Source: a virus (Duplodnaviria > Heunggongvirae > Uroviricota > Caudoviricetes). From it: 4,207 nt of DNA. Numbering within the stretch: position 1 is the stretch's first letter; every line of letters begins with the position of its first letter. Position numbers and translations under genes: made by a program. Of this stretch, positions 115 through 4,207 are shown piece after piece. Under the pieces are notes generated by a model that saw only the letters and a list, made by a program, of their open reading frames with translations, made no database searches and was not told the origin of the DNA. The stretch is taken from the IMG/VR virus record IMGVR_UViG_3300011952_000019. One strand, given 5' to 3'.

Positions 115-700
115 ATGAACACTCTCGCAAATATTCAGGAACTCGCGCGCGCACTGCGCAACATGATTCGCACCGGCGTTATCGTCGAAACCGACCTTAA
201 CGCCGGTCGCTGCCGTGTGCAGACCGGCGGCATGTGTACCGACTGGCTGCAGTGGCTNNNNNNNNNNNNNNNNNNNNNNNNNNNNNNNNNNNNNNNNNNN
301 NNNNNNNNNNNNNNNNNNTTATTCCGGCGATAATCCCGCGCCGTCTGCGTCGGCGGGTGCCCTGCATATCCGTTTCCCTGACGGGGCGGTGATTGAGTAT
401 GAACCCGAAACCAGTGCGCTCACGGTAAGCGGAATTAAAACGGCCAGCGTGACGGCTTCCGGTTCTGTTACTGCCACTGTGCCGGTGGTCATGGTGAAAG
501 CGTAAACCCGCATCACCCTGGACACACCGGAGGTGGTCTGCACCAACAGGCTGATTACCGGCACGCTGGAAGTGCAGAAGGGCGGGACGATGCGCGGCAA
601 CATTGAACACACCGGCGGTGAACTCTCATCAAACGGTAAGGTACTGCATACCCATAAACACCCCGGCGACAGCGGCGGCACAACCGGGAGTCCTCTATGA
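115..700 (+). CDS. V: Baseplate assembly / central spike protein V (P2 gpV family), disrupted here: interrupted by N-gap 258-318 and carrying an in-frame TAA at 503-505 (possible pseudogene or sequencing error)
   Basis: N-terminus MNTLANIQELARALRNMIRTGVIVETDLNAGRCRVQTGGMCTDWLQW matches P2 gpV. After the gap the frame-2 reading YSGDNPAPS...VPVVMVKA, TAA, then TRITLDTPEVVCTNRLITGTLEVQKGGTMRGNIEHTGGELSSNGKVLHTHKHPGDSGGTTGSPL continues the gpV C-terminus to TGA 698-700. Stop overlaps the W start (ATGA). Confidence 0.85.
258..318. other. Run of 61 N (assembly gap or masked bases) inside gene V
   Basis: Directly visible. The V frame before the gap (codons starting at positions 1 mod 3) and after it (2 mod 3) do not join across 61 nt, so the true missing length differs from 61. 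Confidence 0.99.
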
Positions 701-1044
701 CAGCGCGTTATCTCGGAATGAATCGCAGTGATGGCCTGACGGTCACTGACCTTGAGCATATCAGCCAGAGTATCGGCGATATCCTGCGCACACCGGTCGG
801 CTCACGGGTGATGCGCCGTGATTACGGCTCCTTGCTGGCGTCCATGATTTACCAGCCCCAGACCCCGGCGCTTGAGTTGCAGATTAAGGTCGCCTGTTAC
901 ATGGCGGTGCTGAAATGGGAACCCCGCGTCACCCTGTCATCCGTCACCACGGCGCGCAGCTTTGACGGGCGAATGACGGTCACGTTAACCGGCCAGCACA
1001 ACGACACCGGCCAGCCACTTTCGTTAACCATCCCTGTGAGTTGA
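697..1044 (+). CDS. W: Baseplate wedge protein W (P2 gpW; T4 gp25-like family)
   Basis: 115-aa ORF, MTARYLGMNRSDGLTVTDLEHISQSIGDILRTPVGSRVMRRDYGS..., recognisable as gpW; size and position are right. GGGAG at 686-690 sits 6 nt upstream of ATG 697; the start overlaps the V stop. Confidence 0.95.
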   Translation: MTARYLGMNRSDGLTVTDLEHISQSIGDILRTPVGSRVMRRDYGSLLASMIYQPQTPALELQIKVACYMAVLKWEPRVTLSSVTTARSFDGRMTVTLTGQHNDTGQPLSLTIPVS

Positions 1045-1048
1045 AACC

Positions 1049-1957
1049 ATGCCGATTATCGACCTGAACCAGCTACCCGCACCGGATGTGGTCGAGGAGC
1101 TGGACTTTGAAACCATTCTTGCCGAACGCAAGGCGACACTGATTTCCCTTTACCCGGAAGACCAGCAGGAGGCGGTCGCCCGTACCCTGACGCTGGAATC
1201 TGAGCCTCTCGTCAAACTGCTGGAGCAAAATGCTTATCGTGAGCTTATCTGGCGTCAGCGTGTGAATGAGGCCGCACGGGCGGTGATGCTGGCCTGTGCT
1301 GCCGGTAATGACCTTGATGTGATTGGTGCCAATTACAACACCACACGCCTGATTATCACCCCGGCAGATGATTCGACCATCCCGCCGACACCGGCAGTGA
1401 TGGAGTCTGACACCGATTATCGTCTGCGTATTCAGCAGGCGTTTGAAGGTTTAAGCGTCGCCGGGTCGGTGGGTGCCTATCAGTATCATGGTCGCAGTGC
1501 CGACGGGCGTGTCGCGGATATCTCTGTCACCAGTCCGTCTCCGGCCTGCGTCACCATCTCTGTGCTGTCACGTGAAAATAACGGTGTCGCATCCGAAGAC
1601 CTGCTGGCGGTGGTGCGTAACGCCCTTAATGGCGAGGACGTCAGGCCGGTGGCCGACCGAGTGACCGTGCAGTCTGCCGCCATTGTTGAATACCAGATAA
1701 ACGCCACGCTGTACCTTTACCCTGGTCCCGAAAGCGAACCCATCCGCGCCGCCGCCGTGAAAAAACTGGAAGCATACATCACGGCACAGCACCGGCTGGG
1801 GCGCGACATCCGTCTGTCTGCCATTTATGCCGCCTTGCATGTGGAAGGCGTGCAGCGTGTCGAGCTGGCCGCACCACTGGCCGACATTGTGCTCAACAAT
1901 ACGCAGGCGTCTTTCTGTACCGAATACCGCGTCGTGACCGGAGGCTCGGATGAGTGA
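1049..1957 (+). CDS. J: Baseplate assembly protein J (P2 gpJ; T4 gp6-like family)
   Basis: 302-aa ORF beginning MPIIDLNQLPAPDVVEELDFETILAERKA..., recognisable as gpJ. Starts 4 nt after the W stop; the 3' end overlaps the I start by 8 nt. Confidence 0.95.
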   Translation: MPIIDLNQLPAPDVVEELDFETILAERKATLISLYPEDQQEAVARTLTLESEPLVKLLEQNAYRELIWRQRVNEAARAVMLACAAGNDLDVIGANYNTTRLIITPADDSTIPPTPAVMESDTDYRLRIQQAFEGLSVAGSVGAYQYHGRSADGRVADISVTSPSPACVTISVLSRENNGVASEDLLAVVRNALNGEDVRPVADRVTVQSAAIVEYQINATLYLYPGPESEPIRAAAVKKLEAYITAQHRLGRDIRLSAIYAALHVEGVQRVELAAPLADIVLNNTQASFCTEYRVVTGGSDE

Positions 1958-2480
1958 TTCGCGCCTGCTGCCGACCGGCTCATCACCGCTTGAAGTCGCC
2001 GCCGCAAAAGCCTGTGCGGAAATTGAAAAAACGCCGGTCAGTATTCGTGAGCTGTGGAACCCGGATGCTTGTCCGGCAAATCTGCTGCCGTGGCTGGCGT
2101 GGGCGTTTTCGGTTGACCGCTGGGATGAAAAGTGGCCGGAAGCAACAAAACGCGCCGTTATCCGCGATGCGTATTTCATTCACTGCCATAAAGGCACTAT
2201 CGGTGCAATCCGGCGTGTGGTGGAGCCGCTCGGCTATCTCATTAACGTAAAGGAATGGTGGGAGACAAACGACCCGGCCGGAACCTTTCGCCTTGATATC
2301 GGCGTACTGGAAAGCGGTATCACGGAAGAGATGTATCTGGAAATGGAACGGCTGATTGCCGATGCCAAACCCGCAAGTCGCCACCTTATCGGTCTGAACA
2401 TTATCCAGGACATTCCCGGCTATCTGTATACAGGCGGTGTGGTCTGTGATGGTGATGTTATTACTGTTTATCCCGGATAA
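1950..2480 (+). CDS. I: Baseplate / tail protein I (P2 gpI)
   Basis: 176-aa ORF MSDSRLLPTGSSPLEVAAAKACAEIEKTPVSIRELWNPDACPANLLPWLAWAFSVDRWDEKWPEATKRAV..., recognisable as gpI. GGAGG at 1940-1944 sits 5 nt before ATG 1950, which lies inside the J 3' end. Confidence 0.95.
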   Translation: MSDSRLLPTGSSPLEVAAAKACAEIEKTPVSIRELWNPDACPANLLPWLAWAFSVDRWDEKWPEATKRAVIRDAYFIHCHKGTIGAIRRVVEPLGYLINVKEWWETNDPAGTFRLDIGVLESGITEEMYLEMERLIADAKPASRHLIGLNIIQDIPGYLYTGGVVCDGDVITVYPG

Positions 2481-2490
2481 GTGAGAAACA

Positions 2491-4207
2491 ATGAGCACGA
2501 AATTTAAAACCGTTATCACTACTGCCGGAGCCGCAAAGCTGGCAGCCGCCACTGTCCCCGGCGGGAAAAAAGTAAACCTGTCTGCAATGGCCGTGGGTGA
2601 TGGTAATGGCAAATTGCCGGTGCCGGATACCGGTCAGACGAAGCTGGTGCATGAGGTCTGGCGTCATGCCCTGAATAAAGTCAGCGTGGATAATAAGAAT
2701 AAAAACTATATCGTGGCTGAACTGGTTGTTCCGCCCGAAGTGGGCGGCTTCTGGATGCGTGAGCTTGGTCTGTATGACGATGCCGGAACACTGATTGCGG
2801 TATCCAACATGGCAGAAAGCTATAAGCCAGAACTGGCTGAAGGCTCCGGACGTGCGCAGACCTGCCGCATGGTTATTATTCTCAGCAACGTGGCGTCCGT
2901 TGAACTGAGTATTGATGCCAGCACGGTGATGGCGACGCAGGATTATGTCGATGACAAAATCGCAGAGCATGAGCAGTCCCGCCGCCATCCTGACGCCACG
3001 CTGACAGAAAAAGGTTTTACTCAGTTAAGCAGTGCAACAAACAGCACCAGTGAAAAGCTGGCGGCAACGCCAAAAGCGGTCAAGGCTGCGAATGACAACG
3101 CAAATTCACGTCTGGCGAAAAATCAGAACGGTGCAGATATCCAGGATAAATCAGCTTTTCTGGACAATGTTGGCGTTACCAGCCTGACGTTTATGAAAAA
3201 CAATGGCGAAATGCCGCTTGATGCTGATCTGAATACGTTTGGTCCTGTTAAGGCTTATTCAGGTATCTGGTCTAAAGCAACATCCACCAACGCAACACTG
3301 GAGAAAAATTTCCCGGAAGATAATGCTGTCGGTGTGCTTGAGGTTTTTGCTGCCGGCAATTTTGCAGGTACGCAACGCTTTACCACGAGAGACGGCAATG
3401 TATACATGCGTAAACTCGCCAATAAGTGGAATGGCACTGATGGTCCGTGGGGCGTATGGCGTCACACTCAATCTGCTACCCGCCCTTTGAGTACGACTAT
3501 AGACCTGAATACGCTTGGAGCCGCCGAGCATCTTGGTTTATGGCGTAACAGTAGCTCAGCTATAGCTTCATATGAACGCAATTATCCAGAGGAAGGCGGC
3601 TTTGCTCAGGGGATGCTTGAGATCCTCGAAGGCGGAAATTATGGAAGAACGCAACGTTATACCACTCGCCGTGGAAATATGTACGTCCGCTGCCTTGCGG
3701 CAAGCTGGGATGCATCAAATCCGCAGTGGGAACCGTGGTTAAGAGTCGGTCATCAGTCAGAGAGTCGTTATTACGACGGGGATTTGAATGATGTGACTTC
3801 ACCAGGTATTTACAGCGTTACAGGTAAAGCGAGCAACGGTCCAATACTGGATGGAAACGGCGTGACAGTCCTCGGTATTCTGGAAGTGTTGAGGCGCTTT
3901 GATGGTGTTAACGTATGGCAGCGTTATACAACTGCCGGAACAGGTACAACCCTTAAAGGTCGCACGTTTGAGCGCGTTTTTACCGGCAGCTCATGGAGCG
4001 AATGGCGGGAAGTTTACACATCTTATTCACTTCCCCTGAATCTGGGTATCGGCGGCGCAGTAGCAAAACTATCCAGTCTGGACTGGCAGACCTACGATTT
4101 TGTGCCGGGCAGTCTGATAACCGTTCGGCTTGATAATATGACCAACATTCCCGACGGTATGGACTGGGGCGTCATTGATGGCAACCTGATAAACATCGCA
4201 GTTGGTC
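2491..4207 (+). CDS. H: Tail fibre protein H (P2 gpH family), 5' part only; open to the window end with no stop
   Basis: ATG 2491 lies 10 nt after the I stop. Frame 1 is open for 572 codons to position 4206. N-terminus MSTKFKTVITTAGAAKLAAATVPGGKKVNLSAMAVGDGNGKLPVPDTGQTKLVHEVWRHALNKV... is the conserved baseplate-proximal domain of P2-type tail fibres, followed by GFTQLSSATNSTSEKLAATPKAVKAA and repeat-rich distal sequence. Absent from the ORF track only because it lacks a stop in the window. Confidence 0.93.
   Translation, partial: MSTKFKTVITTAGAAKLAAATVPGGKKVNLSAMAVGDGNGKLPVPDTGQTKLVHEVWRHALNKVSVDNKNKNYIVAELVVPPEVGGFWMRELGLYDDAGTLIAVSNMAESYKPELAEGSGRAQTCRMVIILSNVASVELSIDASTVMATQDYVDDKIAEHEQSRRHPDATLTEKGFTQLSSATNSTSEKLAATPKAVKAANDNANSRLAKNQNGADIQDKSAFLDNVGVTSLTFMKNNGEMPLDADLNTFGPVKAYSGIWSKATSTNATLEKNFPEDNAVGVLEVFAAGNFAGTQRFTTRDGNVYMRKLANKWNGTDGPWGVWRHTQSATRPLSTTIDLNTLGAAEHLGLWRNSSSAIASYERNYPEEGGFAQGMLEILEGGNYGRTQRYTTRRGNMYVRCLAASWDASNPQWEPWLRVGHQSESRYYDGDLNDVTSPGIYSVTGKASNGPILDGNGVTVLGILEVLRRFDGVNVWQRYTTAGTGTTLKGRTFERVFTGSSWSEWREVYTSYSLPLNLGIGGAVAKLSSLDWQTYDFVPGSLITVRLDNMTNIPDGMDWGVIDGNLINIAVG
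3226..4060 (+). repeat. Three tandem protein-level repeats of about 92-93 aa within the distal part of tail fibre H
   Basis: Units start at 3226, 3502 and 3781, each opening with DLN(T/D)...G.(Y/W) and containing G.LE(V/I)...(T)QR(F/Y)TT(R/A).G..Y.R...W...W: EKNFPEDNAVGVLEVFAAGNFAGTQRFTTRDGNVYMRKLANKWNGTDGPWGVW / ERNYPEEGGFAQGMLEILEGGNYGRTQRYTTRRGNMYVRCLAASWDASNPQWEPW / ...GVTVLGILEVLRRFDGVNVWQRYTTAGTGTTLKGRTFERVFTGSSWSEW. The units are diverged at DNA level. Confidence 0.6.

Follow-up and report, generated by a model that had tools for sequence, protein, structure and literature searches.

A TAA codon within the baseplate spike gene V of a P2-like prophage and its possible origin as a consensus error beside a scaffold gap

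The central spike gene V of a P2-like (Peduovirus) prophage was found to be interrupted by an in-frame TAA at a codon that reads TCA (Ser) in the homologues. Judged from the alignment, this is one point nonsense change (C504A) in an otherwise intact gpV gene and not a natural gene end. The TAA is most readily read, with a probability of roughly 0.55, as a base-call or assembly error in the consensus of a poor stretch beside a scaffold gap. The window, i.e., the whole stretch of DNA that was analysed (4,207 nt), covers the beginning of the prophage's late tail operon; its features are collated in Table 1.

Late tail operon and the interrupted gene V

The open reading frames of the window follow the order V-W-J-I-H and overlap or abut one another, as in the Peduovirus late tail operon, and the window DNA is 91–98% identical to that of P2 and of prophage relatives annotated with this order. 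By megablast, the V–W stretch was matched in 75 phage records and in about 1,500 complete E. coli genomes (95–98% identity), in which the matching genes carry the annotation of baseplate assembly proteins V, W, and J. The stop codon of V (TGA, 698–700) overlaps the start codon of W (ATG, 697–699) in the sequence ATGA. Because W is preceded by a Shine–Dalgarno sequence of its own (GGGAG, 686–690, six bases upstream of the ATG), the genes downstream need not rely on coupling.

The intergenic region between S and V comprises only 66 nt (49–114). In P2, orf30 lies between these two genes on the opposite strand; it is absent from the window, and the short version of the region is common to most of the prophage relatives. 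Within these 66 nt, the V operon should have its Ogr-dependent late promoter. Two open reading frames on the minus strand run antisense to V (319–759, 146 aa, and 197–610, 137 aa); such frames are typical of the strand opposite to GC-rich coding DNA, and nothing points to their being genes. The prophage is a mosaic. From V to I its nearest relative is the Logan contig L008 (ERR11560354), the H gene of which diverges beyond about position 3363, whereas H from 2947 onwards (2947–4207) is identical to that of E. coli EcPF14, a genome whose V to I genes come from another lineage (with a V of 188 aa). The contrast between 2393–2946 and 2947–4207 implies a putative recombination junction within the 5' portion of H.

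Table 1. Features of the window with their positions and the basis of each assignment.
Feature	Position	Strand	Basis and remarks
Gene S, 3' end	up to 48		followed by the intergenic region and then V
Gene V, P2-type baseplate central spike gpV	115–700	+	alignment to P2 V and homologues; broken by N-run and TAA
Run of 61 N, scaffold gap of wrong size, inside V	258–318		flanks 257 and 319 mapped on homologues
Private changes in V	357 A>G (D98G), 504 C>A (S147stop)	+	MAFFT panel of 17 homologues
In-frame TAA, V codon 147 of 211	503–505	+	TCA (Ser) in homologues; single change C504A
V codons 148–211, past the stop: second half of the triple beta-helix and Apex	506–697	+	Pfam Phage_spike
Gene W, gp25-like baseplate wedge	697–1044	+	intact, 115 aa; ORF list, homologue annotation, direct reading
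Private changes in W	831 G>C, 843 A>C, 850 G>T (D52Y), 858 G>C	+	MAFFT panel of 17 homologues
Gene J	1049–1957	+	intact, 302 aa; ORF list
Private change in J	1226 G>C (E60Q)	+	MAFFT panel of 17 homologues
Gene I	1950–2480	+	intact, 176 aa; ORF list
Gene H, tail fibre, 5' 1,717 nt	2491–4207	+	open up to the end of the window

Gene V also contains a run of N, as the original prediction had pointed out. All homologues have 111 nt where the window has 61 N, and the size of the gap is thus off by 50 nt. Owing to this mis-sizing, the two halves of V seem to lie in different frames; the frame change is an artefact, and the assembly is imperfect here. Residues 49–85 of V are masked by the run, and upstream of it the first 48 residues alone can be read. 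The contig L008 is identical to the window over 1–257, and in its V protein Pfam places Phage_base_V (the OB-fold, PF04717) at residues 19–86 (E 6e-21) and Phage_spike at residues 138–190.

Translation of 320–700 in one frame gave ...ATVPVVMVKA, followed by TAA, then TRITLDTPEVVCTNRL...VLHTHKHPGDSGGTTGSPL up to the TGA overlapping the start of W. Both the in-frame TAA and the continuation of gpV-like sequence beyond it, as originally described, are thereby confirmed. The 64 residues after the TAA match PF18715 (Phage_spike) with E 9.3e-24 (83.6 bits, cut-off 28.2) and the GpV Apex motif with E 0.0012 (19.3 bits, just below the cut-off of 20.8), so the homology beyond the stop is not due to chance. 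In place of the uninterrupted frame of about 211 codons that marks gpV, the record as written encodes a V product of at most 146 aa, and termination at the TAA would remove the 65 residues 147–211, in accordance with the figure first estimated. The segment HTHKH, which had been proposed to be the metal-binding apex, occupies 647–661 (codons 195–199) and agrees with the HxH iron-cage motif (bioRxiv 10.1101/2023.02.25.529910), the iron-binding codons being H197 at 653–655 and H199 at 659–661. Positions 506–700 are identical in DNA to L008, i.e., no decay is seen downstream of the stop. A GTG at 533 opens an open reading frame of 55 aa that spans the spike's C-terminus.

Alignment to P2 gpV and its homologues gave TCA (Ser) as the sense codon at this position: it is present in P2, in an E. 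coli prophage, and in a Salmonella phage, one base apart from the TAA of the window. A C at 504 was found in each of the 15 panel homologues that cover the site, and every annotated V gene of the close lineage is a single gene of 211 aa. The proposal that a single nonsense substitution, and not a natural end of the gene, is present was borne out by this comparison.

In P2, the N-terminal OB-fold of gpV is seated under the gpD hub and is followed by an intertwined triple beta-helix (bioRxiv 10.1101/2023.02.25.529910; bioRxiv 10.64898/2026.09.14.750843; PDB 3qr8, 3qr7); the Apex comprises residues 191–211, in which H197 and H199 of the three chains cage an Fe ion (bioRxiv 10.1101/2023.02.25.529910; bioRxiv 10.64898/2026.09.14.750843). 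P2 gpV is represented by PDB 3qr8, 3qr7, and 3aqj and by Pfam PF04717, PF18715, and PF18946. The V protein of L008 matches the structure 3qr8 over residues 1–211 (E 9e-138); this intact closest relative corresponds to P2 gpV residue for residue over 1–211, with I150V as the sole difference within the 65 residues at stake. The window shares with P2 the order and position of the late operon genes (S, V W J I H), the ATGA overlap of V and W, and the HxH iron-cage motif at codons 197 and 199. It differs from P2 gpV in having TAA instead of TCA at codon 147 and Gly instead of Asp at residue 98, and in being masked in part by N. Apart from the break in its frame, the gene corresponds to P2 gpV in all respects.

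Substitutions downstream of the gap and searches for the TAA allele

Across 319–4207, seven bases of the window were not seen in any of the 17 homologues of the panel, the homologues being invariant at each of these positions (at 357 and 1226, in 15–16 homologues). All seven fall within the 908 nt after the N-run, and none in the other approximately 3,200 nt; by simple arithmetic, such clustering has a chance of about 2e-5 if this segment is fixed and of about 6e-4 if any span of equal length is allowed. Over 1–2500, L008 differs from the window solely at these seven positions, being identical to it over 1227–2500 as well as 1–257. Elsewhere the window carries the same sequence as known relatives; where the H region departs from the nearest relative, the changes are mainly synonymous transitions, and each of them recurs in another homologue.

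The private changes consist of one transition and six transversions, three of the latter being G>C, whereas the biallelic sites that vary naturally within these genes show 174:85 (Fisher p=0.007). In five of the seven cases the new base repeats the preceding base (binomial p=0.045); the TAA change instead repeats the base that comes after it. The four changes in W are packed into 28 nt (831–858), a patch that looks like bad base calls. This cluster was absent from 1,502 matching E. coli records, in which the best identity was 96.9% (four mismatches in 131). The W and J proteins that result from the private changes had no record in a collection of 153 billion gene positions; the unaltered I protein was found exactly on 14 public contigs.

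The TAA allele was sought in several collections. It was absent (megablast) from the 1,090 complete E. coli records that match 460–560, the best of which reached 99% (one mismatch), and a short megablast query gave no 100% match among 54 phage records. Exact-pattern scans did not find it in GTDB representative genomes (35-mer) or in JGI metagenomes (32-mer). A looser 18-mer (TAA or TGA) gave 101 matches in genome contigs and four in IMG/VR; the loci that were fetched all represented unrelated DNA without a V gene.

V was found to be broken by other lesions in 11 public contigs, in which the last 55 codons are called as a separate open reading frame. Among 10 of these, from other E. coli assemblies (L123–L132), codon 147 is still TCA wherever the site is covered. 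The likeness to the window is confined to the small open reading frame at the end of V; the lesions themselves are different, being 1-nt indels, deletions, or inserted sequence. In L123, L125, L129, L130, and L132, 1-nt indels in or beside the CACCCTGGA run (the equivalent of 514–522) split V; in L124 and L127, a deletion fuses an upstream gene to the tail of V; and in L128 and L131, unrelated sequence lies upstream. V is repeatedly found broken in assemblies, through real decay or through long-read errors.

Origin of the TAA codon

The original prediction had offered three causes (a defective prophage, a conditional-lethal nonsense mutant, or a base-call error) without choosing between them; the present data favour the last of these and make a deliberately produced mutant unlikely. 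As a consensus error, the TAA would be a TCA codon for Ser147 miscalled or mis-consensused from C to A in an otherwise normal P2-type gpV gene, and the source of the miscall would be a low-quality stretch of draft scaffold directly downstream of the mis-sized gap. Relaxed selection scatters changes and favours transitions. The odd spectrum of the private changes, their packing after the gap, and the exact match elsewhere are therefore better accounted for by a consensus of locally poor quality than by evolution with selection relaxed, and from them we infer errors and not mutations. Several points speak against an error. The TAA lies 186 nt from the edge of the gap and the most distant private change 908 nt away, a long way for a simple contig-end effect; seven events are few; G>C is not known as a typical platform error; and other public records carry a genuinely disrupted V, so broken V genes do occur in prophages.

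That a resident P2-like prophage acquired a genuine nonsense mutation (Ser147 to ochre) very recently is a serious possibility, somewhat short of an even chance. The A at 504 stands in the sequence as given, and the V genes split by indels, deletions, or insertions in other public assemblies suggest that V does become inactivated in resident prophages. The changes D98G in V, D52Y in W, and E60Q in J could stem from the same relaxed or mutagenic episode, and the Shine–Dalgarno sequence of W would keep the rest of the operon readable. Set against this are the confinement of all private changes to the vicinity of the gap, where scatter would be expected under relaxed selection, a transversion-rich spectrum with three G:C>C:G changes that is unlike natural polymorphism, and the absence of the nonsense allele from every other genome searched. 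A mutator host is an unconvincing source, with three of the seven changes being G:C>C:G; the classical mutT and mutY mutator spectra do not match that of the private changes. Nor does the gene resemble a natural pseudogene of a decaying prophage, since no lesion is seen in W, J, I, or the H fragment, the private changes are confined to 357–1226, and the stop was met in none of the other genomes searched.

That the TAA is real and the prophage nevertheless viable is very improbable; a spike cut at residue 146 would then have to plug the tube, or low-level ochre read-through would have to provide three full-length chains per virion. A laboratory-made conditional-lethal mutant, i.e., a deliberately selected ochre allele of V, is hardly credible. 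Laboratories do produce and use nonsense mutants of gene V of P2, but the window is not P2 DNA (identity of about 91% from V to H), the P2 laboratory mutants are amber and not ochre, the mosaic wild-type prophage with its N gap is typical of a draft bacterial genome, and six further private changes would be left unexplained.

A natural or functional gene end, either as a split V with a separately translated C-terminal piece or as programmed read-through of the TAA, is effectively excluded by the homologue comparison. The 55-aa open reading frame from GTG 533 is called by gene callers in other records and might be taken for such a piece, but it is called there solely since other lesions break V, with TCA kept where the site is covered. 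The uniform TCA of the panel and the single 211-aa genes of the close lineage likewise contradict a split gene, no second example of the TAA was met in any of the collections searched, and the trimeric helix needs covalent continuity with the OB-fold in order to sit on the hub (3qr8, 3qr7). With regard to a suppressor, no tRNA was found in the window.

Consequences for the spike and for annotation

If the TAA is a consensus error, the prophage would encode a normal spike of 211 aa, with the OB-fold under the hub, the intertwined triple beta-helix, and an Apex with Fe caged by H197 and H199, and the stop would have no biological role. If the mutation is real, the product would consist of the OB-fold and about half of the beta-helix, with helix residues 147–190 and the Apex (191–211) gone; tails would probably be assembled with a stunted spike or none, so that the prophage, barring an ochre suppressor, would probably be defective or impaired.

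The likely phenotype of a truncation at residue 146 is bracketed by two engineered mutants of P2 that also end gpV prematurely (structures of engineered gpV mutants: PDB 8vol, 8vom, 8von). V is essential, as Vam1 (Gln9 amber) fails to grow on hosts that carry no suppressor, and in the laboratory gpV-DEL, in which the Apex is deleted after Thr196, is as infectious as the wild type (Miller et al. 2023, bioRxiv 10.1101/2023.02.25.529910). The stop at codon 147 differs from both in being ochre, not amber, and not engineered, and it also removes about 44 residues of the beta-helix. The position of the His-rich tip was given correctly at the outset, but its importance was overstated, the Apex alone being dispensable in the laboratory; any defect would accordingly come mainly from the loss of half of the beta-helix and not of the His cage. 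A stop at codon 147 would probably leave a defective or impaired spike. The 192 bases of V mRNA that would be left untranslated could possibly lower the expression of W-J-I-H by polarity.

A premature stop in a structural gene of a prophage, or a miscalled base in a draft scaffold, is familiar; the finding is ordinary either way, and its importance beyond annotation is small. In the case of an error, the annotation should show an intact spike gene, and the calls behind D52Y in W, E60Q in J, and D98G in V should be distrusted too. If the TAA is real, one more recently inactivated P2-like prophage is at hand, and the truncation, which lies between those of the two engineered mutants, would constitute a natural test of a spike without half of its beta-helix and without its iron-loaded tip. 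Should the prophage prove to be viable as well, the dispensability of the Apex would extend to most of the helix.
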